From an uncultured Candidatus Saccharibacteria bacterium (lineage in GTDB: Bacteria > Patescibacteriota > Minisyncoccia > Phycocordibacterales > UBA918), in assembly GCA_964350645.1 (NCBI GenBank), contig CAYGJY010000001.1, positions 142,316 through 206,315 of the forward strand: DNA of 64,000 nt, written 5' to 3'. Below, in pieces: positions 20,108-33,936 of this stretch (position 1 is its first letter; each line of letters opens with the position of its first letter). The notes beneath the pieces were generated by a model, which did no database searches, was not told where the DNA came from, and saw only the letters and a program-made list of their open reading frames with translations. The position numbers and the translations under genes are program-made.

Positions 20108-21367
20108 CTACCGTACCACCTCGATTAATTTTTCCAGAGTACCAACAGTTTCTTCACCTGTAGAGAGATCTTTAAGGGTGTAGTTTTGCGTTTTTACTTC
20201 ATCTTCACCCAGAATCAAGGCGTATTCCACAAAGGCTTTGCCAGCAGCGTCGAGCTTTTTGCCAACTTTCCGGTCGGAAATGTCTGTTGCTACTGAGATC
20301 TGAGCGGCTCGGAAAGCTTGGGCGAGTTTCTGACTCGCTAAGTTTAAACTCGGTTCGATTGGGAGGATCATGAGCGTTGGCGAGGTCAGATCAGCGGTCA
20401 GGAGGTCGTGGCTTTCGAGGAAGTTGCGCAGCGTCACATCACCAAAACCAAAGCCAATCCCCGGGATCGGGTCGCCACCAAACAGGCCGGTCAGGTTATC
20501 GTAGCGACCACCACCCATCATTGAGCGGTTATTCTCTGGGTCAGTGTCTTTAAATTCAAAAATCGTTCCGGTGTAGTAGTCGAAGCCACGAGCGAGTGAA
20601 CGGTCGATCCGGACATTGGTGATCCCGAGTTCTTTGAGTCCAGCCACTACGGCATTATCACCAGGGTCAGTCGACTCGATCATGTGCTTGATCTCTTTGG
20701 CTAGGGCTTTGTCACCGACAATCTCCTGCAGTGCTTCCAGATATTCATTGGCTTCGATCTTGTCTTTGCGGTCGTTGAGACGGGTGATCGCAGTTACCGT
20801 TGCTTCGTCTGTTATTCCAAGGAGTGCGTAGGCGTGCTTCATCGTGGCGCGATTGTTTACCAGGATTTCAAACATGCTTTCGTCCGCGCCAAAATTCATG
20901 AAAATCGCGTGAGCCAGCGCAATTACTTCAACATCCGCGGTGTAGTCATTGCTGCCAAAGATGTCACAGTTTAGTTGCCAGTGCTCGCGAAGGCGACCAC
21001 GCTGGGTGCGCTCGTAACGAAAGAGGTTGGGGATTGAGTACCAACGGACCGGGAAGGCAAGCTCACGCCGCTTGCCGGCGATCATCCGGGCGACAGTTGG
21101 CGTCATCTCAGGACGCAGCGTCACTTCGCGGTCACCGCGGTCGGTGAAAGTGTAGGTCTGTTCGTTGACCATTTCAGCGTTCTCAGCCCCCTTAGCTTTA
21201 TAAAGTTCTGAGGGTTCAAGCACAGACGCGTCGTAGCGTTCATAGCCAAAGCTTTCAGCGGTCTGTTCCCACACTGAAAACATATACCGCTGCACGGCCA
21301 TATCATCGGGATAAAAATCACGCACACCTTTGTACGGAGCTGTTCCTAGTTCATTTTTGTTAGACAT
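20108..21367 (-). CDS. hisS: Histidine--tRNA ligase
   Basis: The product has class II aaRS motifs and HisRS-specific segments (FPVRWYSIPNLFRYERTQRGRLREHWQLNCDIFG, GGGRYD) plus a C-terminal anticodon-binding domain. Confidence 0.9.
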   Translation of the reverse strand: MSNKNELGTAPYKGVRDFYPDDMAVQRYMFSVWEQTAESFGYERYDASVLEPSELYKAKGAENAEMVNEQTYTFTDRGDREVTLRPEMTPTVARMIAGKRRELAFPVRWYSIPNLFRYERTQRGRLREHWQLNCDIFGSNDYTADVEVIALAHAIFMNFGADESMFEILVNNRATMKHAYALLGITDEATVTAITRLNDRKDKIEANEYLEALQEIVGDKALAKEIKHMIESTDPGDNAVVAGLKELGITNVRIDRSLARGFDYYTGTIFEFKDTDPENNRSMMGGGRYDNLTGLFGGDPIPGIGFGFGDVTLRNFLESHDLLTADLTSPTLMILPIEPSLNLASQKLAQAFRAAQISVATDISDRKVGKKLDAAGKAFVEYALILGEDEVKTQNYTLKDLSTGEETVGTLEKLIEVVR

Positions 21368-21442
21368 ATGTAGCCATTAGAATACCAGAAAACACACGAA
21401 TCGGTAGGGGATTTAGCCTAAAACAAATACATTTTGTAATAT

Positions 21443-21470
21443 TTGACAATTTACAGATTTAAAGTATTAT
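21443..21470 (+). promoter_or_regulatory. Candidate sigma-70 promoter (TTGACA, 16-nt spacer, TATTAT) driving the small lipoprotein-like ORF and the structured element downstream
   Basis: TTGACA is at 21443-21448 and TATTAT at 21465-21470. A GGAG RBS sits before the ATG at 21538. Confidence 0.3.
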
Positions 21471-21537
21471 TTTTCAGTCACGGAGGAGAGTTGGGAAGCC
21501 CTCCAAAGTGACATTCCGACCAACTGAAGGAGTGATC

Positions 21538-21696
21538 ATGAAGATCTTGTGTGTATTGGCGACCCTTTTGGTTGCTGCAGCATGCGCGACGCCACCTGGC
21601 GTTGTGTCACCAAATCGAGAAAAACCGCTTGGGGCGAATCCTCAACCGGTGAAGCCGATGAAGATCGTAAGACCGTCGACATCGCACTGGATTTGA
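21538..21696 (+). CDS. Small (52 aa) lipoprotein-like/secreted Pro-rich peptide
   Basis: The peptide MKILCVLATLLVAAAC has a signal-peptide and lipobox-like N-terminus. It follows a good RBS (gaaggagtgatc) and the stop is immediately followed by a 9-bp GC stem-loop. It could be spurious. Confidence 0.25.
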   Translation: MKILCVLATLLVAAACATPPGVVSPNREKPLGANPQPVKPMKIVRPSTSHWI

Positions 21697-21956
21697 TCCA
21701 CCGGGCGCCCCTTTATGGGGCGCCCACCGGGTAGACGACCAAAATCGTCTGTGGTATGATCCTTACATGATCCTCCTGGTCGGATCTGCTACTCGGGAGC
21801 CTGGCTTCCCACCATATCGTCGGGATTCGACGATAGAGGTTCTCGAGCTTCTTTTAGGCGGCTGACGCGCAATCCGGTGCGTCGGCCGCTACAAAGGCCG
21901 GTAACTATCTTTTGCACACTGGTGCAAGGACAAAGACAAGTTATCCGGCCTTTTTT
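21697..21956 (+). ncRNA. GC-rich, highly structured non-coding element ending in an intrinsic terminator (candidate cis-regulatory leader, riboswitch or small RNA) upstream of the sulfotransferase gene
   Basis: Multiple nested hairpins are present. They are gggcgcccc/ggggcgccc at 21703-21725, atcgtcg/cgacgat, and gcggctgacgc/gcgtcggccgc. The last contains a U-G wobble that forms only on the + strand. A further hairpin ttgcac/gtgcaa is enclosed by ggccggtaac...gttatccggcc, which is followed by TTTTTT at 21951-21956. Confidence 0.3.
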
Positions 21957-22039
21957 CGTGCAAATTTTTTATGGTAGTGGTCACAAAATTAAAGTGTTTT
22001 ACATTTACAAGGCAGTCTATTTACACTATTATCATATAA

Positions 22040-22873
22040 ATGATGACTCCAAAGAACGACCAGACACTGATCTTATTCGGGGGACTACCACGCAGTGGTT
22101 CAACGGTGCTGGGTGAAATACTAGCCCAGAATCCGCAGGTGTATGTTTCACCGACGAGTGGTCTCCTGGCGACAGTCGACCTACTGTGGCGGCAGTGGGA
22201 TAGTATTTCGCAGCACACTGTCGTGCCCCATGAAGAGAATCGTCGTAATGTACTGCAGGCAACTATTGCCAGCTACCATCAGCATCAGTCAGCGCCGTAT
22301 GTAATCGATAAGTCACGTTGTTGGGCCAATCGATTGGAGTTGCTGAATGATTTATTGGGGTACAAAGTTAAACTCATTGCTCCGGTACGCGATGTACGAC
22401 AAATTCTCGCGAGCTTTGAGCAGCTGTGGCGGACAGAGTCACGCATACGCTGCATTAAGCAAGAGCAGCAAGCCGGAGTTTCTTTTCAGACGCTTGAAGG
22501 GCGGATGGCGTACTGGATGTCACCAGCTGAAGCCGTGGGGAAGGCACATAACTCACTCGTGGATGCCTGTCGGCGCGGACTGCAAGACCAGATACTATTT
22601 GTTGACTATGAGCGACTGCTGGCTGATCCGCAAGGAGCTCTCGACACAATCTATCGCTTTCTTGATCTGGAAGCCTGTACACACGATTTTGCAACCATAA
22701 CGGATCGTTTTACAGAAGACAGTTTGGTCTACGGTATTCGTGATTTGCATACTATCCGTCCAGCATTGTCGCCTTCGCAGACGAAGTGGGAAGAGCTCCT
22801 TGGTCCGGCCGCTGAGCAGTACGCTGAGCACAACTTTTGGCTGCATTCACAACTGAATCTACATACTATCTAA
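22040..22873 (+). CDS. Sulfotransferase-family protein (PAPS-dependent type)
   Basis: The N-terminal 5'-PSB loop is LILFGGLPRSGSTVLGEIL. The product is 277 aa with a sulfotransferase-like architecture. Its GC is modestly above the genome average. Confidence 0.6.
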   Translation: MMTPKNDQTLILFGGLPRSGSTVLGEILAQNPQVYVSPTSGLLATVDLLWRQWDSISQHTVVPHEENRRNVLQATIASYHQHQSAPYVIDKSRCWANRLELLNDLLGYKVKLIAPVRDVRQILASFEQLWRTESRIRCIKQEQQAGVSFQTLEGRMAYWMSPAEAVGKAHNSLVDACRRGLQDQILFVDYERLLADPQGALDTIYRFLDLEACTHDFATITDRFTEDSLVYGIRDLHTIRPALSPSQTKWEELLGPAAEQYAEHNFWLHSQLNLHTI

Positions 22874-22896
22874 GCTATTGACTTTTTAATATAACT
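22868..22896 (+). promoter_or_regulatory. Candidate promoter (TTGACT, 17-nt spacer, TATAAA) upstream of the high-GC lipoprotein gene
   Basis: TTGACT is at 22868-22873 and TATAAA at 22891-22896. Confidence 0.25.
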
Positions 22897-23018
22897 GGTG
22901 TATAAAGTACGCACCAACTCACCAATTCTTAATGAATCAGGGTGGGGTGTTCTTCAGGTCTCACAAGGCCTATTAAATGCAACGCGCCCAAGCGAGGCGC
23001 TAAACAAGGACTGAAACG

Positions 23019-23591
23019 ATGAAGATGCTCTATGTTTTGTTGACTGTTCCGTTTATCCTCGGCGCTTGCGGCGCTGAAACCACCGGGACGGCGAGCGCTC
23101 CGGCGCCGGATGCGCCGGCGGCTGAGACTGTCGCGGTGACGGAATCGACTGCCCCGGCGACCAAGCCGGTCACTGAGGTCGATGTCGCGGCGGCTCCGAC
23201 CGAGCCGGCGCCGGCCGCTTCGGAAGAAGTTGAGGTCGCGGCGGTGGAGCCGACGGCTCCGACCGAGCCGGTCCCGGCCGACCCGCGGATGAAGGCGGCT
23301 GCCTTCATGGCTGCAGTCACGAGCTGCGAGGTCAGCACCGGCACGGTGCCGATGTCATTCATCGGCGATGAGACGGGGGGTTCCATGGTGGTGGGCGCAG
23401 GGCGCATCACGGTTCCGTACCGCATGAAGCTCGATGGTGATGGTGAGCTGGTTTTCCAGCGGGACTACCAGGGTTGGGGCACCCGCCCCTTCGAAGTCCG
23501 CAAGGACTCTGTGTGGCTCCGGGGGGACAGCTCTGATTTCGATTGCCCTGTGCCGCAGGAAGTCGCCGCACGCTTCAATGCGGAGACCTGA
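23019..23591 (+). CDS. Lipoprotein with an Ala/Pro/Thr/Glu-rich linker and a small C-terminal globular domain; very high GC, probably horizontally acquired
   Basis: A lipobox is present (FILGAC) and the linker is low-complexity APAPDAPAAETVAV. GC3 is heavily biased (gcg/ccg/gcc codons) at ~68% GC against ~45% in the flanks. Confidence 0.55.
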   Translation: MKMLYVLLTVPFILGACGAETTGTASAPAPDAPAAETVAVTESTAPATKPVTEVDVAAAPTEPAPAASEEVEVAAVEPTAPTEPVPADPRMKAAAFMAAVTSCEVSTGTVPMSFIGDETGGSMVVGAGRITVPYRMKLDGDGELVFQRDYQGWGTRPFEVRKDSVWLRGDSSDFDCPVPQEVAARFNAET

Positions 23592-23595
23592 GAGT

Positions 23596-23655
23596 GGCGG
23601 GGGCGGGTGCTTGCATCCCGCCCCCACCGAACGATGCATTCATTGAATGCCACCG
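23596..23655. terminator. Two consecutive GC-rich hairpins after the high-GC gene, between it and the convergent SagB-like gene
   Basis: The first is gggggcggg-tgcttgcat-cccgccccc. The second is tgcattca-ttgaatgca. Confidence 0.45.
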
Positions 23656-23671
23656 TTAGAGAAAACCATCT

Positions 23672-24391
23672 CTAGCGGTTTTCTTTTGTCTCGACGTCGG
23701 TTTTTCCAAGGGCAAGGGTGTAGATGACATGTTCTGAGCCAGCGATTGTTACAAAAGAGTCATCAAGGAGATCATACAACGGTGCTCCGATAGCCCGGCA
23801 GCCGATGTTAAGTGCGGCAGCAGTTAAATAAATATTTTGTCCGATATGACCAGCTTCGAGGAAAGCGTGTGTATACCCCAGGGTGCCGTATTGAAATAAA
23901 TTGCGGGCTTTTACATGACTGATACATATATATAAAGAAGCACGTTCGATCTTTTCTGGGTCTGGCATTCGACCGCCTATGTCTGGTGCGGATCGACTCA
24001 ACAAGTCAAGGCTATGTTCTTTCGTGTTGTAGTAGTAGGTGCCGGTAGCAAGTGCCGGAGTGTCTTTGGGGACGACTAGGTAGAGATTTAGTGGTTGTAA
24101 GCCGCCAGCTGAAGGAGCGGGGCGTTTGTCTACATCACTCGTTGTGTAGGAGGACAGAAGAATGGTCTCAATCTCGGTGAGTGATAGAGATTCAGTGGTT
24201 GAAAAGGTTTGGGCGGACTGACGAGCAGCTAGTGCGTCACTAAGAGAGATGGGTAGTGGGTTTGGTTCTCTTAGTGGGGTACTCTCATATGTATTGCGGA
24301 GTTGGTTGTCGGCCTGTTCGTAGAGTGCACCAATATTCGAGTGACGGTTCGCTTTTATAAATGAAAAGAAATAGTCCATAGGCTTAGGCAA
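23672..24391 (-). CDS. SagB/McbC-type FMN-dependent dehydrogenase (nitroreductase fold), the azoline oxidase component of TOMM-type pathways
   Basis: A nitroreductase-family core AFLEAGHIGQNIYLTAAALNIGCRAIGA is present along with YLVVPKDTPALATGTYYY. The start overlaps the stop of the upstream YcaO gene by 8 nt. Confidence 0.7.
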   Translation of the reverse strand: MPKPMDYFFSFIKANRHSNIGALYEQADNQLRNTYESTPLREPNPLPISLSDALAARQSAQTFSTTESLSLTEIETILLSSYTTSDVDKRPAPSAGGLQPLNLYLVVPKDTPALATGTYYYNTKEHSLDLLSRSAPDIGGRMPDPEKIERASLYICISHVKARNLFQYGTLGYTHAFLEAGHIGQNIYLTAAALNIGCRAIGAPLYDLLDDSFVTIAGSEHVIYTLALGKTDVETKENR

Positions 24392-25883
24392 AAGGATGAG
24401 GAACAGTATTGATAGTGTCTTTAGTTAATGGTTTGTTGTACTGTGCTTCGTAGAATTTTTGTAGTCTAGGTTGGTTGATTGGTCGTTCAACATCGGCAAA
24501 ATACATATCAATCATATCAGGACTCATCATGCGAACTACTTTGAGTCCATGAGCTTGCGCTAAGGGAGTGGTTTGATCGACCGTATACATAGTAATATTT
24601 TTTCTACGCAAAAAACTTCTGAGCGACAGGTATGTGTTTGGGATACTACTCAGATCAAACTGCGCTTGATAATCCTCAAATGAGATAGTAGTACCCGAGA
24701 TGAAAAAATCAGCCAGAGCGATAATTTGTGGGGTAGACCAAAACCGGTTGCGGTCTTGGATTGATTCTAGATTTGAACCTTCAACCCCCCATGAATATTG
24801 TTTTTCAGGCTGCTCATAGACGTGTGGCCATTTCATAATACTGTACTGTAGTTTTTCAAGCATTGCATGGATGTCAGCGCCCGCGACACCACTCAGTCTA
24901 AGGATAGACGAACGTTTACGATCAACGAGTACCATAATGAGTGATGGGATACCAAGGTCAGTACTACAATCAAGCAGATGTATGTCTAAGTCAGCCTGCT
25001 TTGTTTCAGTAATAAATTCCTGGAATGATGGGACAGTAATTGAGCTCAAGTCGATCTGTTTTGGTGCCGTTGTCGTGAGCCAGTGCAGCAGGAAGCCATC
25101 ACGTTCGATTAGCTCAAAGAAGCCACGCAGGCATGCCTGATCATAAGATGTGTAGGTAGCACAACCGTTAGTATTAGAGCTGCCGAGTAAGGTGCGGTTT
25201 TGGGGGTTTTGATACTGGTAGTAGAGATGGGTTAGTGCCACTGGTAGGTAGACATTTTTTTTGGTTACCATATTTCTCCCAGCTACCCAGTATTCATTTT
25301 TATACAAGGTGTCATCGTATGAGCCGTAATAGGTAAAGAAACTGGGTGCAATATACGTGGAGTCGTCTAAAAAAGAAGGATTGATGTGCCAGTCTGAGTA
25401 GTTGGTTGCGACACCGCTGATTCTTTCGATTGTTTCAGCTAGCGCCACTGTCATGGCCTCGTTATGGCTTTTGTGGGCACTGGACGCCCAGAGATTATGA
25501 AACAGGTGTGGAGCTTGAGGGTTTGGCTGGAGTTTTAAAACTGCCAGAGGCACTCGAGGAAAGCCTGGAGACATAAAGCCAAACGTCCAGTGCGAGACAT
25601 AGCCATCCTGCAGAAGTTTCTCTAAGGTTAGACGATTAAGTGTAGAAAGGGTCTCCAATTCATCATGTTTGCTCTGCAGATAAATTTTACTTTTTGTCAG
25701 TCTTTCAAGTAGGAGACAAAGTTTCCTGGTGATATAAACTCGACAACGATTAGTGAGATTGTCTGGATAGAAGGTTGATTGACTAACTCGGGCCTGATCA
25801 GCAATACGGCTTTCGCTGGTAATAACTTTCTGTAGAGAAATAGTATCAGAGTCGTGTTGGGCTAGTCTGCTCATGTACGACAC
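24384..25883 (-). CDS. YcaO-domain ATP-dependent cyclodehydratase with an N-terminal extension and a proline-rich C-terminus
   Basis: YcaO signature motifs are EAMTVALAETIERISG and FFELIERDGFLLHW. The C-terminus ends ...VPHPFA, a PxPxP-like tail typical of azoline-forming YcaOs. The product is 499 aa. Confidence 0.75.
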   Translation of the reverse strand: MSYMSRLAQHDSDTISLQKVITSESRIADQARVSQSTFYPDNLTNRCRVYITRKLCLLLERLTKSKIYLQSKHDELETLSTLNRLTLEKLLQDGYVSHWTFGFMSPGFPRVPLAVLKLQPNPQAPHLFHNLWASSAHKSHNEAMTVALAETIERISGVATNYSDWHINPSFLDDSTYIAPSFFTYYGSYDDTLYKNEYWVAGRNMVTKKNVYLPVALTHLYYQYQNPQNRTLLGSSNTNGCATYTSYDQACLRGFFELIERDGFLLHWLTTTAPKQIDLSSITVPSFQEFITETKQADLDIHLLDCSTDLGIPSLIMVLVDRKRSSILRLSGVAGADIHAMLEKLQYSIMKWPHVYEQPEKQYSWGVEGSNLESIQDRNRFWSTPQIIALADFFISGTTISFEDYQAQFDLSSIPNTYLSLRSFLRRKNITMYTVDQTTPLAQAHGLKVVRMMSPDMIDMYFADVERPINQPRLQKFYEAQYNKPLTKDTINTVPHPFA

Positions 25884-25899
25884 TCTACACCGAAAGTGT

Positions 25900-27075
25900 T
25901 TATTGTGTCCAATCCGTTAGAAAAGCAATATTTTGGTCGAATTCAGCAAGCGAGATTGTACGAAGAGCTGAAACGTCATCTTGTGTAAGGTCATAAATTT
26001 CCACTCGAGCATTGCGGTTGCTAGGATCGTTGTCGATAACCTGCAGAGCCAGATAGCGCCCTTCTGGTGAAATAGTTGGCCAGATGGTCTGCACATCATT
26101 TTGCGCAAATTGGAAGACGGTACGAAGTGCTACTGGTGCAGCGTTAGAGCTCTGATCGTTGTCCTCAATCTTAAATACTGTCAACCTGTTGATGGTACTG
26201 CTGTCTTCTGATGGATCAGTCAAAAGCAGATACTCACCATCTGGACTGATAGTAATCTGACTTCCATAACCAAGTCCTGTCTGTAGAGGATTCCAGAGAT
26301 TGTAGATAGAGTTTTCAGGATCTTTAACATCAATCACATAAATACCATCAGTCTTGATCACAAAAACAAAATTGTCATCTTTTGACCAAGTTGGATACGC
26401 TGCGTTTTGCGCTAGCACCTGTTCGTCGCTGCTGCCGGTGATAAGTATTGCGTCCCAATTGTCTAGATCACGAAAAGCGAGTATGTCTTCCAGGGCTTCT
26501 GTACCACGCTGTTGTGAAAAAAGTATTTTAGTAGCATCAGTATTTGCAATTTGAGGAAGTCTTTTTCTAATTATTGGAGTGTCATTACTTGTGACAGCAG
26601 TGGTTAGTTGAGTGATTCTTTCTTCATCTTTGACAAAGATTTGTGGGGTGACGGGTTCAGTAACTTCTACTGCCATAGTGGTTGAGATAGCCGGAACTAG
26701 TGCAGCATAGGCTACTACACCAAGTGGGCTAGAATCGTAGGTATAGGCGATGTTTGTGATTTCAGTATTCTGACTGATTGAATTTGATTCAAAGTCGTAT
26801 GTATGTAATTGGTAGGGTAAAAAATCGCTAGCCTGACTAATTTCTTCATCAGCAAGAGTTATATGAAGTGAGCCAGATAACTCTTCTAGAGGGTTTGAGG
26901 CCGTGTATTGATTAGGTACGGTAACAACGTATGTTGGACGAACATCTTCAGGTGACTGCACCTGTGGAGTCAGTGTTGTTGGTTCAGTGACTGAGAGTAG
27001 ATTTGTGGCGTACCAGACTGTCAATCCACTGAGTAGTAGAATTATCAATAAAAGAACTAAGTGTACTTTTTTCAT
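25900..27075 (-). CDS. Secreted beta-propeller protein (TolB/PD40-like repeats)
   Basis: An N-terminal signal/TM segment (MKKVHLVLLLIILLLSGLTVW) is followed by repeated ISPDGEYL / ISPEGRYL blades. Confidence 0.45.
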   Translation of the reverse strand: MKKVHLVLLLIILLLSGLTVWYATNLLSVTEPTTLTPQVQSPEDVRPTYVVTVPNQYTASNPLEELSGSLHITLADEEISQASDFLPYQLHTYDFESNSISQNTEITNIAYTYDSSPLGVVAYAALVPAISTTMAVEVTEPVTPQIFVKDEERITQLTTAVTSNDTPIIRKRLPQIANTDATKILFSQQRGTEALEDILAFRDLDNWDAILITGSSDEQVLAQNAAYPTWSKDDNFVFVIKTDGIYVIDVKDPENSIYNLWNPLQTGLGYGSQITISPDGEYLLLTDPSEDSSTINRLTVFKIEDNDQSSNAAPVALRTVFQFAQNDVQTIWPTISPEGRYLALQVIDNDPSNRNARVEIYDLTQDDVSALRTISLAEFDQNIAFLTDWTQ

Positions 27076-28604
27076 ATAACAGTATTAGAATTTACCTGAT
27101 ACATCTCATCGAGAAGTTGTTGCGAATCTTTGTCGAGACTTTGTAACCACGTAGCTGAGACCTTGGGCATTCCGCCAGGAAGTGGTCCGTATACACCTCC
27201 GAAGTCAAATACAAAACTACGCGTCATGTCTTTGTCTAGTGTGTGCTTGTATGATGCTGGGGCGGTAAACTCTAGTTCAATCCGGTCTTGAAACTTAGCG
27301 TAGACAAACTCGCTGTTATTTTTTTTGCTCAACTTTGCTTTAACAACGGCAGGCTCGTCTGCGGTTGTGGTAGTAAGAACTTCTGAGAGTTCAAACTTTT
27401 CTTCGGTGGTTTCATTTTTAAGAGCCTCAGTTTCAGACACAGCAGGGAATGCAGACAGTAGCTGATGGTTTTTAGTAGCTTCAACAGTTGCATTCACTTG
27501 CCCGTCAGCGGCTATGAATTCGGCTGGGATTTTAATTGCTGTCTTAGTTGCGGCAAAATATCGTGGCTCAATCACAACGGTCTCACTTTTGGTGCCGTCT
27601 TTACTAAAGGTAACTAATAAGGACTTATTGCCAGTAGAAACAGCGTCAGCTTGGGCAGTTTTGATTCCAAAAGAGTCCATAAATGATTTGTCTTGAGGAG
27701 TATCCTGGTTGGTACTCATAAATGATCCAACCAACATAGATAAGGTTCCGGCGAGCATGAACTTACCTAGCTTACTTTTACGAGATGTAAAAGGGGAGGC
27801 TGTAAGGACACCGGCTTCTTGCTGTGGGTAGACGTCGTCGATATGCCAATCCCGGTAGACAGAACTTATAATCAAGTATGTATCAACAGCCTGATCAGCT
27901 ACGAAGGTAAATGAAGCCACATCACCATTACGTAGTGTGCTTTGTTCCTTACTAGCTGAAGGGCAGATGCGGGCAGTCTCAGTAAGTTTTGTATTAGCTC
28001 GATAGACAGTTGCTTCTGTCCCGGCTTTTTCAGATTCTGAGATTGATTTTTTAGAGAAATAAATAGGGGTACCATAATTGCAGTCGACAACGGGTTCAAG
28101 ATTTGCGGGGTGAGTGATTGCTGTGATGCCAACAAAGTCATAGAGACTTTCTTCTGGCTCAATCTCTTGAATCATAAGTTTCACTTTGCCATCTTGGTCT
28201 ACGTGGAGTGGTTTTTGGAGAACATACTTATCAGGAATAATCTCACCAGCGAGATATAGCTCTTTACCGACGCTTAGTACAGGAAAGTGTGAACGCGGCT
28301 TCCCAAACATTACATCGTTGTCCATTACGTATTTTTGTCCGTCCCAGGCGTAGAGAAAAGGGGTTGAGTATGGTCCACCATCACCACCACCACTACAGGA
28401 ACCTGTGCAGCCCGAACAGCCCCCGGCACAGAGGCTGAATAACATTAGGGGGTAGCCACCAAGTAGAGCAGCAAATTCTGAACCAAAAAGGAAGCTAGCT
28501 ACAACAATAATGAAGCCAGTCAAGATTTTTATACACGCTTCTGGCCCTATGTTGCTGATAATTTGACGAGTTTGTGTCAGAAATAGTAGTTGATAAGTAG
28601 GCAT
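27072..28604 (-). CDS. Membrane-anchored protein with a juxtamembrane Cys/Gly/Ser-rich segment (CAGGCSGCTGSCSGGGDGG); otherwise of unknown function
   Basis: Two N-terminal hydrophobic helices are followed by the Cys/Gly/Ser-rich stretch (nt 28374-28430) and then ~430 aa of uncharacterised extracytoplasmic domain. The stop overlaps the start of the beta-propeller gene. Confidence 0.5.
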   Translation of the reverse strand: MPTYQLLFLTQTRQIISNIGPEACIKILTGFIIVVASFLFGSEFAALLGGYPLMLFSLCAGGCSGCTGSCSGGGDGGPYSTPFLYAWDGQKYVMDNDVMFGKPRSHFPVLSVGKELYLAGEIIPDKYVLQKPLHVDQDGKVKLMIQEIEPEESLYDFVGITAITHPANLEPVVDCNYGTPIYFSKKSISESEKAGTEATVYRANTKLTETARICPSASKEQSTLRNGDVASFTFVADQAVDTYLIISSVYRDWHIDDVYPQQEAGVLTASPFTSRKSKLGKFMLAGTLSMLVGSFMSTNQDTPQDKSFMDSFGIKTAQADAVSTGNKSLLVTFSKDGTKSETVVIEPRYFAATKTAIKIPAEFIAADGQVNATVEATKNHQLLSAFPAVSETEALKNETTEEKFELSEVLTTTTADEPAVVKAKLSKKNNSEFVYAKFQDRIELEFTAPASYKHTLDKDMTRSFVFDFGGVYGPLPGGMPKVSATWLQSLDKDSQQLLDEMYQVNSNTVI

Positions 28605-28679
28605 AGTTTGTTATTAGGATTGATACATATAATGTATACATTATACACCGATGTGGGTGATAGGTTTCGTTGAGCTTGT

Positions 28680-29651
28680 TTATAGTGTAGCGGTAATAAT
28701 GTGCGAAATGTCGTCGCAGCTATATATGGTTATGTCTTTAAGATGGGTATTCTCGCAGATTGATTTCCAGTCACTGAGTGTTCGAAGTCCGGTTTGATTG
28801 GTTAATGTATGCACGTGTTGGTATACCGCAACCAGTTTTCTCGTCTCAGCGTTAAGTGAGTTCAATTGCTCATCTGTAAAATAGCTTTGTTCTGCAAAAA
28901 GTAACTGGGCGCCAGGGAAATGATTTTGAAGCGAAGTTATGTAGTTTATAAATTCAGAATTAGTCGGTGTAATTTCATGTAGTACTGTCATAAAGGTAAT
29001 GAGGCACCCTGCGTAGGCAGCCTTCCCCCCTAGTCCTGCTCGGTCTTTCCAATCGATAATATCTTTGACGTCAGCTTTAATAAACTGGAATTGTTCTCTT
29101 AGCGACCGATACGGTTCTCCCCGATCAATACCAATGAGTTTTATGTTTTTTGCTTCTAGCTGGGAAAGAAATGCCCCTGAACCACAACCAAGATCAATAA
29201 TAGTATGAGGATCAGAAAGCTTTGGGAGTATTTCCTTATTGATCTTAGTGACAAACTTTTGGCTATATATTTCACTTGAAATATTAAGTGCTGAGCTTGT
29301 TGCCGATCCTATTAGAGTTGCTGCAGAGAGGTTTTCATCAGATGTCTTTGTTAGTACGTCATGATAGGCTTCAGTAAAATGTAATAAATTTTTTACCTGG
29401 TCGGTAACTAAGCTTTTTCCTGCAGTAACAAATATTCCGTCATAGCTAAGGTAATTGTTATCATAGTTACTAAGAAAAGTGCAGAGGTTGTGAATGTCAC
29501 TGAGATTGATATTCTTATTTTTTACCCAGTGAGAAAGTTCGATCCGTGTGTGCTCACTTAGTTCACTTAGTAACCCGTAACGTTGCAGTTTTAGTAATTG
29601 AGAAAAGAAGCACCAGTTAAAGACGAGGTCAGAGATTGGTAATTTGTTCAT
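28680..29651 (-). CDS. Class I SAM-dependent methyltransferase
   Basis: Motif I IIDLGCGSGAFLSQL and a post-I acidic residue (IGIDRGE) are present. The start is uncertain because the listed ORF (to 29702) overlaps the upstream gene. Confidence 0.6.
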   Translation of the reverse strand: MNKLPISDLVFNWCFFSQLLKLQRYGLLSELSEHTRIELSHWVKNKNINLSDIHNLCTFLSNYDNNYLSYDGIFVTAGKSLVTDQVKNLLHFTEAYHDVLTKTSDENLSAATLIGSATSSALNISSEIYSQKFVTKINKEILPKLSDPHTIIDLGCGSGAFLSQLEAKNIKLIGIDRGEPYRSLREQFQFIKADVKDIIDWKDRAGLGGKAAYAGCLITFMTVLHEITPTNSEFINYITSLQNHFPGAQLLFAEQSYFTDEQLNSLNAETRKLVAVYQHVHTLTNQTGLRTLSDWKSICENTHLKDITIYSCDDISHIITATL

Positions 29652-30804
29652 ATAATTTTTCACGTTCAGTTTGCGTTGCTGCTGTGATATAGAAGAATAC
29701 ACGCCCTAAGTGGCCAGTAAAAAACATAAAAGGTATCACACCACGGGCTGAGGCTTTCGAGAAAAGTATACCGCGATTACGACATTGCTCAATTAGGGTA
29801 TCGATTGGTATGTGTTTCCAGTCTGGATTAGACACTTCAAGTGCTACATACGGCTGTTTAGTCGCGATTTTTTCATAGATACCGTATGCATATGAGGAGA
29901 TGACTCGACGAGGATTTGCTTCAACCCAGAGTAGGCCACTTGATTTTGAGAGAATGGCGTTTAGGCCAAGGTGACCACGGTAGCCCATCTTTTGGTAGGC
30001 AGAACCTATTTTTACGGCGTCGCGTTCGATTACTTGGCGAAGTTCAGGATCGATTGTATGGTACGACTCACAGCCTCGATATGAGCGTTTGTTCTGGTAA
30101 AAAAGTTGATTATGAAGCGATAGGGTCTGCACCGCTGCCCCGGTAACTAGTAGTTGTATACTAGGTGAGAGTGATACATCTGGAATCCAAGCCTCTACGA
30201 TATATTTACCAGTTCCTGTTAACTCGTGAGCGGGCCGAATGTCTTTATGGGTGCTTATGGCGTGGTGCAGGGTGTCTGGATTATATACCTCGGCATTTAA
30301 ACCACTTACGCCGTCCTCAGCTTTAATGATGACACTGTTGTTACCTGACCAGAAGAGACGCATTATCTTTACGTAATTCAACCACTTACTTGTGCGGGCT
30401 ACGTGACTGCCGGCTGGTGTAGAGATGTCAATATTGGCACATATTTTCTTAAACAAGGCTTTGCTTACAAAATCGTTATAGCAGCTTGGTATAGTGACAG
30501 ATCCTAGTTGTTGCGCGAGTGTTTCTTCTTTCTCAGTCCAGTTAAATACATCGAGTTCGGTTGGGGTAATGGCAGTAATTTGCTTGAGTGAGTTGCCGCT
30601 GATTGGGTTAGTAACAGTGCGAAGTTCTTCAGGTATGATCCCAATTTCTGCATAAAACGCACATAGTTTTGGGCTTTCATAGGGGATAACCACTGTAGTA
30701 TCAGGGGTGCTGAATACTAAGCCAGAAAATCCAAAATGAGTGATGTCTGTATTAGTAGTGTGCTTAAAAGGGATGTGGAGTCGATGCCAAATTACTGATT
30801 CCAT
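29629..30804 (-). CDS. ATP-grasp-fold enzyme (peptide/amide ligase-like)
   Basis: The segment VIIKAEDGVSGLNAEVY has an ATP-grasp Lys and Gly-rich loop. The C-terminal LWVEANPRR is an E-x-N Mg/ATP motif. Confidence 0.5.
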   Translation of the reverse strand: MESVIWHRLHIPFKHTTNTDITHFGFSGLVFSTPDTTVVIPYESPKLCAFYAEIGIIPEELRTVTNPISGNSLKQITAITPTELDVFNWTEKEETLAQQLGSVTIPSCYNDFVSKALFKKICANIDISTPAGSHVARTSKWLNYVKIMRLFWSGNNSVIIKAEDGVSGLNAEVYNPDTLHHAISTHKDIRPAHELTGTGKYIVEAWIPDVSLSPSIQLLVTGAAVQTLSLHNQLFYQNKRSYRGCESYHTIDPELRQVIERDAVKIGSAYQKMGYRGHLGLNAILSKSSGLLWVEANPRRVISSYAYGIYEKIATKQPYVALEVSNPDWKHIPIDTLIEQCRNRGILFSKASARGVIPFMFFTGHLGRVFFYITAATQTEREKLYEQITNL

Positions 30805-30865: not shown

Positions 30866-31693
30866 ATGACTGGAAAACGTATTAGTTATTATGTGACTGT
30901 ATTTAGTATCTGTACGATAGCAGGAGTAACTTACTTTTTTTTAATGGAGAGAGGTGACTCAGCTTTATACAAGGAAAATTATGATGCTGTAAACATCAGT
31001 GATACAGCAACGACTGAAGAATTGTTTCAAAAAGGTGAATATTACTTCAATCACGATGATGATCCGGCTGGTCCGTATGATATCAAAGAGGCGCGACGGT
31101 ACTATGAAGCGACGATTCGAAAAGATCCGCAAGCAATCGGGGCAGCCTGGTATCAGTTGGGCCGGATTGATTTTATTGAAGGAAAATTCAATGCAGCGTT
31201 GTATAAGTTTGAAAAATTAGAAGAGTATTTTCCAGAATCAGAAAGTAATATCAATCCTAACTACATGGCGGGATTGGTGTATGGTTATCAAGCTAGAAGG
31301 ACGAAAGACCAAGCTGACTGGGACGCTGCAGAGGCTGCTTTTGTTGACTATATAGAGTATGAACCGTATGCACCGTGGCCGCGGGTTGATTTAGCCTGGA
31401 TATATTTTGCACAGGGGAAGTTTGAGGAGATGAAGCCAGTACTAGGTGAAGGTCTCGTTTATGATGGCGATAATGCTTGGTTGCACAATATGTATGGACT
31501 GGCGATGCTTAATACTGGAGAAAAAGCAATTGCTCAAGAGCATTTTGGTTTTGCTGCTACGCTAGCTGAGGCACTCACACCGGAAGATTGGGGACAATCA
31601 TATCCGGGTAATAATCCCGCAGACTGGGAACAGGGTTTGGAAGAATTTAAAATTGCGATCCAGAGAAATCAAAATTTGGCAGCAGTTGAGTAA
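30866..31693 (+). CDS. Membrane-anchored TPR-like repeat protein
   Basis: An N-terminal TM helix is followed by helical repeats with TPR-like spacing (ARRYYEATIRKDPQAIGAAWYQLGRIDFIEGKFNAAL). Confidence 0.4.
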   Translation: MTGKRISYYVTVFSICTIAGVTYFFLMERGDSALYKENYDAVNISDTATTEELFQKGEYYFNHDDDPAGPYDIKEARRYYEATIRKDPQAIGAAWYQLGRIDFIEGKFNAALYKFEKLEEYFPESESNINPNYMAGLVYGYQARRTKDQADWDAAEAAFVDYIEYEPYAPWPRVDLAWIYFAQGKFEEMKPVLGEGLVYDGDNAWLHNMYGLAMLNTGEKAIAQEHFGFAATLAEALTPEDWGQSYPGNNPADWEQGLEEFKIAIQRNQNLAAVE

Positions 31694-31716: not shown

Positions 31717-33936
31717 ATGCATCGGTTAGTGCCAGTTTTGGCGTTTTTATCAGGAGTCTGTGGAATTGCTTATGAGTTACTGTACTTCAGGATAATCAGC
31801 GCTTACTTAGGAGATATTTTTTATGTCGGTGCCGCAGTGGTAACTGTTTTTTTTCTCGGTATAGCCTTCGGGTCTTTATACGCTACTGATAAGTATCGTT
31901 ATTTGCCACTTGCAGAGTTTGCCTTAGGGGTTTATGCCATCATTGTAAGTTTCGGACTTCTGCATTTTGGATTGTCTATCACGACAGCCGTCGCACAGTT
32001 ACCTTTCTCTGAAATGATGAATCTGCTTGTAGCAGTTTTTGTAATCCTCGTACCGCCAGCATTTTTGGTCGGTCTGACGGCTCCATGGTTTGTATTTTAT
32101 GTCAGAAACACGAATTTATTTGTCAATAATTTTAGTATCGTGTACTGGCTATACAATCTTGGGGCGGCAGCTTCAGTTTTGTTGGTTGAGTACGTTTTCA
32201 TTAGGTCTTTGGGAATTTCAGCCAGCTTACTGCTAGTGAGCGTTATTAATTTTATTGTCGCTGGGACTCTGTTTCGAATCAAGGCTCCCGCAAAGGTTTC
32301 TGGGGAGATTGTTGCAAGAAACACCGTACCACAACAAGCTGTGCTTCTGCTCAGTGCACTTAGTTTTGTTAGTGGGATACTCCAAATGCTCGTTTTATAT
32401 CAAGTTATTCGCTATGTGGGTCCAATAGCAGAGAATTTTGCATTGTTTATGGTGGCTACACTAACGAGTATTTCAGTCGGAACAGTACTGGTTAGTTATG
32501 GTCGCATTAGTTTCGCTACTATTTGTTTGTGGATTCCGGCCATTATCGGAGTACAGTTTTTGTTGTTGCCTGAATTGATCTGGCTTTATTCAGTGCTATA
32601 CACCAACGGTGGAGTATTTCTAGGCAAGCTGTGTTTAATTGGGTTACTGGTAGTGCCAGTATTCAGTTGGTTTGGAGCAACCGCCGCAGCGTTAGTTGAA
32701 GAGCATAAGATCGCTCACACAGGTTGGGTGTTAGCTGTTACTGCTGGGAGTAATGTATGTGGCTTTTTAGGTTTTTTATTAGTGTTACATCGACCAGACG
32801 TAGCGTTATCTTGGATCATTTTTGGTTGTGGAGTTGGCATCGGTTTGCTAGTGCTGTTCTCAAGACCGTATGCTCTTAACGTATTACTGGTGTTAGCGCT
32901 TAGTGTGGTTTTGCTTGTCAGCGTGCTTGTCCGTTGGCCATCATATCTCGATTCAGTTGCTTATCATAAGGTCCCGGAAACTGTCATGCAGGGGGATGTT
33001 TTTTCAGATGAGACGTTACTGGTAGAGCAGCAATTTGGAGAAGATGTGCGGGTAGTACGTTCAGCAGTAAACAACGATGTGGTGAGATTGCAGTTCAACG
33101 GGTATCACTCATTAACTATCGGACCAGGCACAAACGCCGTTCGTAATGAAGCATTTGTCGGTATCGTAGGCTCTCATTTTACGGCCGCCACTGAGTCCGC
33201 GTTAGTGCTTGGGTTGGGGGCTGGCTTTACAACAGCAGCAGTAGTTGATCGGTATGACACCGTGACAGTGGTTGAGATTAACCCCTTAATGAAAAAGATA
33301 GTCACCTATTTTTCTAAAGAAAATAATAGTGTGAGCTTGGCGAAAAATCTAACAGTCCTTGAACAAGATGGGATCGTCGCACTCGCCAATAGTGCTGAAC
33401 AGTATGATTTAGTCGTGAATACCGTGACTACACCAGCTTATTTTTCAGCTAATAAATTGTGGACGGCAGATGTGTTTGATTTGATCAAACAGCGTTTAAG
33501 TCCCGGTGGTGTGTTTGTCGGGTGGCTCGACAGTCGGTTGGGTGATGTCGGTACCAATATCATGCTCGACACGCTCGAGTCGGTCTTTGCCGAGTGTTCA
33601 TACGCCTATATCAATCAGGAATATTTTGCTTTTGTGTGTAGTGATGGACCACTGACGCATCAAGATCGATCGTGGCCGGCCGATTACTTTAGTGGCCTGT
33701 TAGCTGAAGATTGGCCAGGAGTGTCCGAAATTTTGCTACTTGATTCGCTTATGTTTGATCATGTCCAGCCTGAATCAAGTGCAAAAATGATCAATACGCT
33801 GGACCATCCGGTGTTGTCATATTTAGTACTTAAGCAGGATCTGAGGTCATCAACATTCTCGAGGACAGCACTGGTTGAGTCATTTGCAGCGAAAGATCGT
33901 AGCAGTAGCAGTCAGTCAATTTTAGATCAATGGTAA
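31717..33936 (+). CDS. Polytopic membrane domain fused to a spermidine-synthase-like (aminopropyltransferase-fold) C-terminal domain
   Basis: ~12 TM helices are followed by VLGLGAGFTTAAVVDRYDTVTVVEINPLM and LSPGGVFVGW, a spermidine synthase-like Rossmann domain. Confidence 0.5.
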   Translation: MHRLVPVLAFLSGVCGIAYELLYFRIISAYLGDIFYVGAAVVTVFFLGIAFGSLYATDKYRYLPLAEFALGVYAIIVSFGLLHFGLSITTAVAQLPFSEMMNLLVAVFVILVPPAFLVGLTAPWFVFYVRNTNLFVNNFSIVYWLYNLGAAASVLLVEYVFIRSLGISASLLLVSVINFIVAGTLFRIKAPAKVSGEIVARNTVPQQAVLLLSALSFVSGILQMLVLYQVIRYVGPIAENFALFMVATLTSISVGTVLVSYGRISFATICLWIPAIIGVQFLLLPELIWLYSVLYTNGGVFLGKLCLIGLLVVPVFSWFGATAAALVEEHKIAHTGWVLAVTAGSNVCGFLGFLLVLHRPDVALSWIIFGCGVGIGLLVLFSRPYALNVLLVLALSVVLLVSVLVRWPSYLDSVAYHKVPETVMQGDVFSDETLLVEQQFGEDVRVVRSAVNNDVVRLQFNGYHSLTIGPGTNAVRNEAFVGIVGSHFTAATESALVLGLGAGFTTAAVVDRYDTVTVVEINPLMKKIVTYFSKENNSVSLAKNLTVLEQDGIVALANSAEQYDLVVNTVTTPAYFSANKLWTADVFDLIKQRLSPGGVFVGWLDSRLGDVGTNIMLDTLESVFAECSYAYINQEYFAFVCSDGPLTHQDRSWPADYFSGLLAEDWPGVSEILLLDSLMFDHVQPESSAKMINTLDHPVLSYLVLKQDLRSSTFSRTALVESFAAKDRSSSSQSILDQW

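Follow-up and report, generated by a model that had tools for sequence, protein, structure and literature searches.

We analysed a 64-kb stretch of DNA from a UBA918 Patescibacteria genome (hereafter the window; all sequence coordinates are positions in it), in which a six-gene operon at 23672-30804 on the minus strand encodes a YcaO cyclodehydratase, a SagB-type dehydrogenase and a 510-aa membrane-anchored protein, which we refer to as Memb. Judged from homologue searches and gene order, the operon is part of a conserved module specific to the Candidate Phyla Radiation (CPR, or Patescibacteria), and the likeliest target of the YcaO/SagB pair, at about an even chance, is a Cys-rich segment of Memb itself (C59-S71), in which azol(in)es would be formed. 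YcaO/SagB genes lie beside Memb in 34 of the 42 non-redundant loci that have enough flanking DNA to judge. The features of the operon are:

23672..24391, minus strand: SagB-type flavin mononucleotide (FMN) dehydrogenase, 235 aa from ATG 24379 or 239 aa from TTG 24391
24384..25883, minus strand: YcaO cyclodehydratase (PF02624), 499 aa from GTG or 496 aa from ATG 25874
25900..27075, minus strand: TolB-like PD40 beta-propeller of 391 aa, carrying a signal anchor at the N-terminus; 4-nt overlap between the Memb stop and its own start
27072..28604, minus strand: Memb, membrane-anchored protein, 510 aa, proposed substrate of YcaO/SagB
28374..28430, minus strand: Cys/Gly/Ser/Thr low-complexity segment C59-G77 of Memb, candidate azol(in)e core
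28680..29651, minus strand: S-adenosylmethionine (SAM)-dependent methyltransferase, 323 aa from ATG 29651 (longest open reading frame 340 aa, from GTG 29702); PF13489 30.1 bits
29629..30804, minus strand: ATP-grasp ligase, 391 aa, first gene of the operon; PF02655 27.6 bits

The original prediction had placed six co-directional, tightly spaced genes here, with an ATP-grasp enzyme, a methyltransferase, a membrane protein and a propeller upstream of the YcaO/SagB pair, and all six open reading frames (ORFs) were found in these positions on the minus strand and assigned to families. They run 5' to 3' in the order ATP-grasp, SAM methyltransferase, Memb, TolB-like propeller, YcaO, SagB-type dehydrogenase, with gaps of at most 80 nt. 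The 8-nt overlap that had been described between YcaO and SagB exists with the TTG start at 24391 only; with the ATG at 24379, the start chosen by an independent gene call, SagB begins 4 nt past the YcaO TAA, and the two genes are tightly coupled whichever start applies. All six ORFs are intact and the same sequence is present in two other assemblies (L001, L002) from two independent sequencing runs, therefore the locus is not an assembly artefact. The window is chromosomal, as it also contains rpoB, rpoC, dnaG, rpoD, hisS and folD. A promoter and terminator scan gave counts no higher than in shuffled sequence and was given no weight.

The YcaO and SagB-type enzymes

The YcaO ORF carries VALAETIERISGV (including ALAETIERISG) and FFELIERDGF (including ELIERD), ends in NTVPHPFA and matches PF02624 with 137.5 bits (cutoff 25.7) over residues 139-457, so the identification first made from these motifs and the VPHPFA tail stands. 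Its best NCBIfam match is TIGR03604 (SagD) at 165.1 bits, under the curated cutoff of 219.25. A family profile, built from an alignment of 22 orthologous YcaOs from related loci with the window copy included, matched the cyanobactin-type heterocyclases of the PDB (MusD 6e-48, TruD 5e-44, LynD 1e-43); these matches were limited to the YcaO domain and extended to the extreme C-terminus, where the family-invariant PHPF aligned with the PMPF of TruD. Weaker matches were to the thioamide YcaO MJ1094 (9e-28, partial), McbD (8e-10) and E. coli YcaO (4e-8). Invariant across the 22 members are E147, E150, R151, E254, E257, R258, D259 and P492-H493-P494, together with a C-terminal N..PHP[F/M]x; the residues of the ExxER and ExxERD motifs we take to be the ATP/Mg2+-binding acidic residues. 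By its profile matches and its C-terminus the YcaO is thus assigned to the azoline-forming, non-cryptic kind, in agreement with the original prediction. That prediction had also named pairing of the YcaO with TfuA, or a ribosomal protein S12 context, as what would speak against it, and neither is present: no TfuA was matched in the window (Pfam, NCBIfam), no S12 context was seen, and the identifiable genes adjoining YcaO in related loci are SagB or Memb. TfuA-type thioamidation was rejected on the lack of TfuA in the window and the far weaker match to MJ1094. Two distant YcaOs, one beside a trypsin-like protease (P0003) and one fused to a nitroreductase (P0004), lie in unrelated contexts with no Cys-rich neighbour and were placed outside the module.

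Ahead of the ATP/Mg2+ domain the YcaO has an N-terminal extension of ~140 aa, for which a role in substrate recognition had been suggested. No evidence for this role was obtained: no recurrent Pfam family was found in 21 YcaO N-terminal domains (Pfam scan, E <= 1), and the matches of the region to PDB profiles (DEP, CRP and Lrp winged-helix proteins) were all sub-threshold (E 0.035-1). An AlphaFold2 model of the YcaO from a 3-sequence alignment had a predicted local distance difference test score (pLDDT) of 39.8, unusable for reading the fold.

The SagB ORF, which carries FLEAGHIGQNIYLTAAALNIGCRAIGA, passes TIGR03605 at 95.8 bits (cutoff 78.4) and scores 58.3 bits against PF00881, bearing out the SagB-type assignment made earlier. 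The family profile matched azoline oxidases in the PDB, with E-values of 2.7e-35 for CyaGox, 1e-31 for BmdC and 1.6e-26 for McbC. The catalytic Lys-Tyr pair of the azoline dehydrogenases, K201/Y202 in McbC (PMC6395948), is kept in 28 of 29 SagB homologues. Besides this pair, which is considered below, motifs altered in the window SagB are RxSxR (RQSAQ), PSGG (PSAGG) and YPxE (QPLN). In L017 (6404-7906), and also in L072 and L076, SagB is fused to an N-terminal MTS-type methyltransferase domain (PrmC/HemK-like, NPPY) in a 500-aa protein, a second and independent link between a methyltransferase and the module.

Memb, its Cys-rich segment and its distribution

Patescibacteria genomes were the only ones in which Memb homologues were found: a one-genome-per-species scan gave 14 loci (in Saccharibacteria, Kaiserbacteria, Sungbacteria, Nomurabacteria, Parcubacteria, UBA918 and UBA6201), a metagenome scan 61 further loci, and an exhaustive HMMER search 298 representatives among 1.84 billion proteins; a 15-sequence Memb profile returned two proteins from a 5.8-billion-protein database, the candidate list being filled by low-complexity words. 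Homologues adjoining YcaO-SagB share 25-30% identity and stand in at least four gene orders. By profile-based synteny, the order ATP-grasp, methyltransferase, Memb, propeller, YcaO, SagB is shared by the window, L009 and L012, whilst ATP-grasp, methyltransferase, YcaO, SagB, Memb, propeller is found in L010, L011, L024 and others; further arrangements are Memb-propeller-YcaO-SagB, YcaO-SagB-Memb-propeller, a divergent SagB-YcaO pair beside Memb, and YcaO-Memb. The six genes therefore occur together in several CPR lineages, in the same or permuted order. The original prediction had called such machinery very unusual for a minimal epibiont genome, which was overstated, as the excerpted text of Sharrar et al. 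2020 (mBio) counts 110 YcaO clusters in a further 93 CPR genomes, designates them linear azol(in)e-containing peptide (LAP) clusters and places a nitroreductase next to 89 of them (PMC7298704); YcaO clusters are listed for CPR once more in a survey from 2025. Going by these excerpts, the present module probably accounts for part of the counts of Sharrar et al. No description of a Memb-based gene context was found in the literature text searched, and this context of YcaO/SagB appears to be new.

Memb has no Pfam or NCBIfam match. It consists of an N-terminal hydrophobic region, a low-complexity linker 1, a beta jelly-roll domain A (~81-253), a second hydrophobic helix (~283-302), an AQAD motif (317-320) and a domain B (~328-503). 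An AlphaFold2 model from a shallow alignment shows two beta-rich domains in the same positions (~81-253 and ~328-503, pLDDT 70-93), separated by disordered linkers and hydrophobic helices, and Foldseek returned nothing significant with this model. In the model the domains resemble the beta jelly-roll folds of carbohydrate-binding modules (CBM-like); with confident beta-rich domains and no significant Foldseek match, Memb is therefore predicted to be a binding or structural protein and not an enzyme, protease or transporter. In L018 (7623-9494) and L019 (7707-9416) two separate genes encode the halves of Memb in reversed order, that for domain B preceding, and each half has its own N-terminal hydrophobic segment; the halves look like autonomous modules of anchor, linker and jelly-roll.

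The candidate core lies between the hydrophobic N-terminus and a conserved STPFLY motif. Positions 28374-28430 translate exactly to CAGGCSGCTGSCSGGGDGG, and within it C59-S71 reads C-A-G-G-C-S-G-C-T-G-S-C-S, with 4 Cys, 3 Ser and 1 Thr in 13 residues, a composition resembling that of a microcin B17-type core. A low-complexity Gly/Ser/Asp/Cys segment occupies this place in every type I Memb homologue, before an invariant S-T-P-F-L-Y / END.MFGKP motif, so that the position is conserved across homologues at 25-30% identity; examples are GGGGGGGGDCASCGSCGSCDSCSS in L003 and, in further homologues, ...CACATGSPTGCISGSTGTSGTGDCTCAGCS, ...SACSCGDCVGGCCGG and CCSNGNC...SCSCSSGSSCSSCGSGSSC. Some members are Cys-rich in linker 2 as well, which follows the second hydrophobic helix and an AxA(D/E)xP motif. 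A lipoprotein signal at the Memb Cys was considered and rejected, the preceding residues forming no canonical lipobox on inspection. Short motifs, ..GCGN.. or ..CSNGNC.., recur in type I linkers where the low-complexity segment begins (P0012-P0031, L009-L012, L025, L035) and could be a recognition or first-cyclisation site. A [F/W]G..A.A[D/E].P motif recurs ~20 residues past a hydrophobic helix, just ahead of the low-complexity segment, in Memb linker 2 (AQAD 317-320 in the window) and also in linker 1 of type II at many loci; the motif looks like a signal-peptidase AxA site, although its distance from the helix is too great for a canonical one, and it is kept with or without YcaO.

The Cys content of Memb follows the presence of the enzymes. 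Its non-globular parts have a median of 4 Cys (range 1-11) in 22 loci with YcaO/SagB and a median of 1 (range 0-2) in 8 loci without (Mann-Whitney p = 4e-4), and at least 3 Cys are present in 16/22 and 0/8 of these loci, respectively (Fisher p = 5e-4). The difference holds within type I (1-11 Cys vs. 0, 0 and 0; p = 0.004) and within type II (4-5 vs. 1-2; p = 0.008), although kinship inflates these statistics and the p values overstate independence, since a single lineage supplies the three YcaO-less type I loci (70-73% identical), and a single lineage the four complete type II loci with YcaO (88-97% identical).

The search for a small precursor covered the stretches separating YcaO, SagB and Memb in 11 loci and all small ORFs of all loci and of the window. 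No Cys-rich small ORF outside larger genes was found in the window, and no small leader-core precursor in the operon, whose gaps are too short to contain one and where the only core-like sequence is internal to Memb. The original prediction that no precursor was evident holds for small ORFs of the window and overlooks the Memb Cys/Gly/Ser segment, which is Cys-enriched where YcaO is present. Three other loci encode stand-alone Cys-rich proteins of 92-113 aa, without a Pfam match:

L009 868-1209, plus strand: stand-alone Cys-rich ORF, adjoining the second, divergently transcribed YcaO of L009 (which has two YcaOs)
L041 4345-4653, plus strand: stand-alone Cys-rich ORF, adjoining the divergent YcaO of L041
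L016 819-1097, plus strand: stand-alone Cys-rich ORF

In each, a membrane helix and AxA(D/E)xP are joined to a C-terminal tail rich in Cys/Gly/Ser, with 7-9 or more Cys. The AxA(D/E)xP motif matches that of Memb linker 2 in the same genomes, and Memb linker 1 of L016 and L041 has 0-1 Cys. By these shared motifs and positions the stand-alone ORFs tie the low-complexity modules of Memb to YcaO in a second way. No protease, leader peptidase or dedicated exporter was found among the six genes or their immediate neighbours (Pfam, NCBIfam); an ABC-2 transporter lies ~8 kb away and was not seen conserved with the module.

A proposed azol(in)e stalk and competing explanations

In the mechanism that we propose, the cytoplasmic YcaO would use ATP to cyclodehydrate Cys, and possibly Ser/Thr, in the juxtamembrane segment C59-S71 of Memb to thiazolines and oxazolines, which SagB would then oxidise to azoles. 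The flexible Gly/Cys linker would become a rigid, thiol-free, protease-resistant polyazole stalk in a resident membrane protein, and not a released antibiotic peptide, whilst the ATP-grasp ligase and the MppJ-like methyltransferase would be optional tailoring enzymes in a subset of lineages. More tentatively, and with doubt somewhat outweighing belief, we suggest that CPR put thiazol(in)e/oxazol(in)e into the juxtamembrane stalks of a full-length CBM-like surface protein and of detached ~100-aa versions of it, by means of a leader- and RRE-independent YcaO (RRE, RiPP recognition element; RiPP, ribosomally synthesised and post-translationally modified peptide) with a new N-terminal domain, for structure and not as antibiotics, and that some lineages add tailoring by a PGM1-like ligase and a C-methyltransferase. 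The system works like a LAP or thiazole/oxazole-modified microcin (TOMM) system, yet several features that define such systems are missing, namely a precursor of small size, a partner for leader recognition, and a peptidase or exporter. To our knowledge, the azole-forming chemistry of YcaO/SagB has until now been described on small peptides guided by a leader, which are cleaved and exported as toxins or antibiotics.

A number of observations weigh against modification of Memb. The case for Memb as the substrate draws throughout on gene neighbourhood and composition. The window SagB has Gln-Tyr (FQYG, residue ~163 of the 235-aa form) for the catalytic Lys-Tyr and is off consensus at 7/35 conserved columns, the highest in its family, and because the catalytic Lys is replaced by Gln, oxidation in this genome may be weak or absent. 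As the original prediction had noted for an E1-like/RRE partner, no RRE, E1-like or Ocin-ThiF partner was detected among the six operon proteins (Pfam, NCBIfam) or in the profiles of the YcaO N-terminus. The two hydrophobic segments of Memb give a contradictory topology in a positive-inside analysis; CBM-like domains are usually extracytoplasmic, and if those of Memb lie outside, the cytoplasmic YcaO might have to act on Memb before export. Kinship, as given above, inflates the Cys statistics, and in L010, L011, L018 and L041 YcaO is present whilst Memb has only 0-2 Cys. Memb and a tetratricopeptide repeat (TPR) protein persist in loci without YcaO, therefore Memb has a function of its own.

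Precursors of heterocycloanthracin are often encoded away from their enzymes (PMC4603692), which also counts against Memb and favours a conventional LAP/TOMM pathway whose small precursor is encoded elsewhere, with Memb and the propeller serving export, anchoring or immunity, or being co-regulated envelope proteins. We regard this as unlikely, though it is helped by the stand-alone ~100-aa Cys-rich ORFs of L009, L016 and L041, by the 84-aa precursor that the excerpted text of Sharrar et al. proposes for a Microgenomates cluster (PMC7298704) and by the Cys-poor Memb proteins of some YcaO loci. The stand-alone ORFs, however, are membrane-anchored, share the Memb AxA(D/E)xP and look like detached Memb modules and not like classical leader-core peptides; no small Cys-rich ORF is found in the window or in most other loci, the operon has neither a leader peptidase nor an ABC exporter, and the Cys content of Memb tracks YcaO. 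This tracking also bears on the distinctly improbable explanation that the Cys/Gly segments are ordinary extracellular stalks (disulfide-bonded, metal-binding or flexible spacers) and that YcaO/SagB act on another target, being neighbours through a shared envelope gene island. Gly/Asp/Ser low-complexity linkers do occur in Memb without YcaO (L051, L064, L078), the CBM-like domains suggest an extracellular location, and the surroundings are envelope-related, comprising the TPR protein, a surface protein, an acyltransferase and BacA, with a DsbA-like thioredoxin ~6 kb away. Yet it is Cys specifically, and not low complexity in general, that tracks YcaO, the adjacency of Memb and YcaO outlasts repeated rearrangement of gene order across CPR classes, and extra Cys-rich modules adjoin extra YcaOs.

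We consider it very unlikely that the YcaO has a different activity, forming thioamides or amidines on a protein for example, with the SagB-like protein a generic nitroreductase, or that the pathway is decaying in this genome. The TIGR03604 score below its curated cutoff (165 vs. 219) would fit, as would the divergence of both window enzymes, each the most divergent member of its family (YcaO deviant at 8/44 and SagB at 7/35 conserved columns, with the SagB Lys-to-Gln change), and YcaOs do modify whole proteins in thioamide formation, as in methyl-coenzyme M reductase. Against other chemistry, there is no TfuA in the window, the family profile places MJ1094 and E. coli YcaO 16 to 40 orders of magnitude behind the azoline-forming heterocyclases, PHPF is kept and the SagB family profile matches azoline oxidases; against decay, none of the six ORFs is disrupted, two other assemblies have them in identical form, and the YcaO catalytic residues are intact.

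Modification of Memb has partial counterparts in known systems. Microcin B17 (McbB-C-D with McbA) likewise combines a YcaO cyclodehydratase with a SagB/McbC-type FMN dehydrogenase, and the Memb candidate core is Gly-rich with Gly-Cys and Gly-Ser pairs, as is the McbA core. The present operon differs in having no McbB/E1-like RRE scaffold, TldD/E-type maturation or McbEF exporter, in its Gln-Tyr for McbC Lys201-Tyr202, and in that the Memb core is internal to a 510-aa protein with ~430 residues after it, whereas that of McbA is C-terminal in a 69-aa peptide. The closest solved relatives of both enzymes are in the cyanobactin systems (LynD/TruD/MusD and CyaGox), with the C-terminal PxPF aligned; those heterocyclases, however, have fused N-terminal E1-like and RRE domains of ~380 aa where the present YcaO has an unrelated ~140-aa extension with no detectable RRE, and the operon is without PatA/PatG proteases. 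Thioamidation of methyl-coenzyme M reductase by YcaO-TfuA is an earlier example of a YcaO whose substrate is a full-length protein and not a leader-bearing peptide, although its chemistry is TfuA-dependent, forms a thioamide and involves no dehydrogenase, and MJ1094 matches the present YcaO far more weakly. The CPR LAP clusters share the YcaO with an adjacent nitroreductase, but the excerpts of that paper describe a Microgenomates cluster in which YcaO and nitroreductase are accompanied by a peptidase and an 84-aa peptide, and within these excerpts the Memb/propeller/TPR context, the ATP-grasp and methyltransferase genes and a membrane-protein substrate are not mentioned (PMC7298704). Walker et al. 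2022 used MicD-F / ArtGox to engineer thiazol(in)es into folded-protein linkers, restricting backbone flexibility (PMC9052802); this is the same outcome as proposed for Memb, which would be the natural counterpart of that laboratory construct.

If Memb is indeed modified, this would be the first natural backbone heterocyclisation that remodels a protein linker, until now achieved by engineering only (PMC9052802). A YcaO recognising its substrate without an RRE or E1-like partner would be useful in protein engineering, and many of the CPR LAP clusters would gain a concrete function. CPR organisms have minimal biosynthetic capacity and rely on cell-surface contact with their hosts. Should the proposal be wrong, there is still a conserved CPR-specific module here, four to six genes in size and with clear limits, that is worth annotating.

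Accessory enzymes and neighbouring genes

The ATP-grasp family profile matched BesA (8yi6, 1.7e-14), PGM1 (3wvq, 1.7e-11) and an ATP-grasp peptide ligase (8ynd, 1.5e-7) in the PDB, which assigns the enzyme, at the level of profile similarity, to the PGM1/BesA type of amide-forming peptide or amino-acid ligases. PGM1 ligates a non-proteinogenic acid to a ribosomal peptide in the formation of pheganomycin. A graspetide (microviridin-type) system was rejected, as the profile matches are to BesA/PGM1 ligases and include no graspetide ligase. Among solved structures the methyltransferase is closest to C-methyltransferases, its family profile matching MppJ (3e-15), 2-ketoarginine methyltransferase (2e-12) and CouO (9e-11). 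Similarity of the two accessory enzymes to PGM1/BesA and to MppJ/2-ketoarginine methyltransferases is at the family level only (E 1e-11 to 1e-15), and unlike the systems of PGM1, BesA and MppJ the operon has no aminotransferase or other unusual-amino-acid genes. ATP-grasp is found only in type I loci that also have YcaO, in a subset of them, and the methyltransferase is present in most loci with ATP-grasp and occurs without it in two. A link between YcaO and ATP-grasp was noted by Makarova et al. 2022 only for a different ATP-grasp branch.

The propeller has only a sub-threshold PD40 match; its family profile matched Atu1656 (3.8e-8) and TolB (5.5e-7) in the PDB, and it comes after Memb in almost every assessable type I locus. 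Divergent from the operon lies:

30866..31693, plus strand: TPR-repeat protein, 275 aa, with TPR Pfam matches

Its homologues (33-53% identity) are downstream of Memb in 13 of 18 first-round loci, and the TPR protein and a large surface protein accompany Memb with or without YcaO. The surface protein of the window (35116-37776, plus strand) is an 886-aa Cys-containing repeat protein with no Pfam match; members of its family come after the TPR gene in 13 related loci, and the homologue in L010 has a thrombospondin-type-1-like WSGWSSCSVTCGGG motif. Between the TPR and surface-protein genes, which adjoin in other loci, the window has an inserted gene (31717-33936, plus strand) for a polytopic membrane protein of 739 aa to which a spermidine-synthase-like domain is fused (NF037959 40.9 bits, cutoff 40).

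Directly downstream of the operon, a stretch at 21400-23650 has a GC content of 0.54 (~0.44 around it), is also found in L001 and L002, and may be a foreign island. Its genes, all on the plus strand, encode a sulfotransferase (22040-22873), an Ala/Pro-rich lipoprotein (23019-23591) and a small lipoprotein-like ORF (21508-21696). Rfam gave no match in the window, and a tRNA-Arg(TCT) called by ARAGORN at 20294-20373 (plus strand) lies within the hisS ORF (20108-21367, minus strand) and is probably a false positive.

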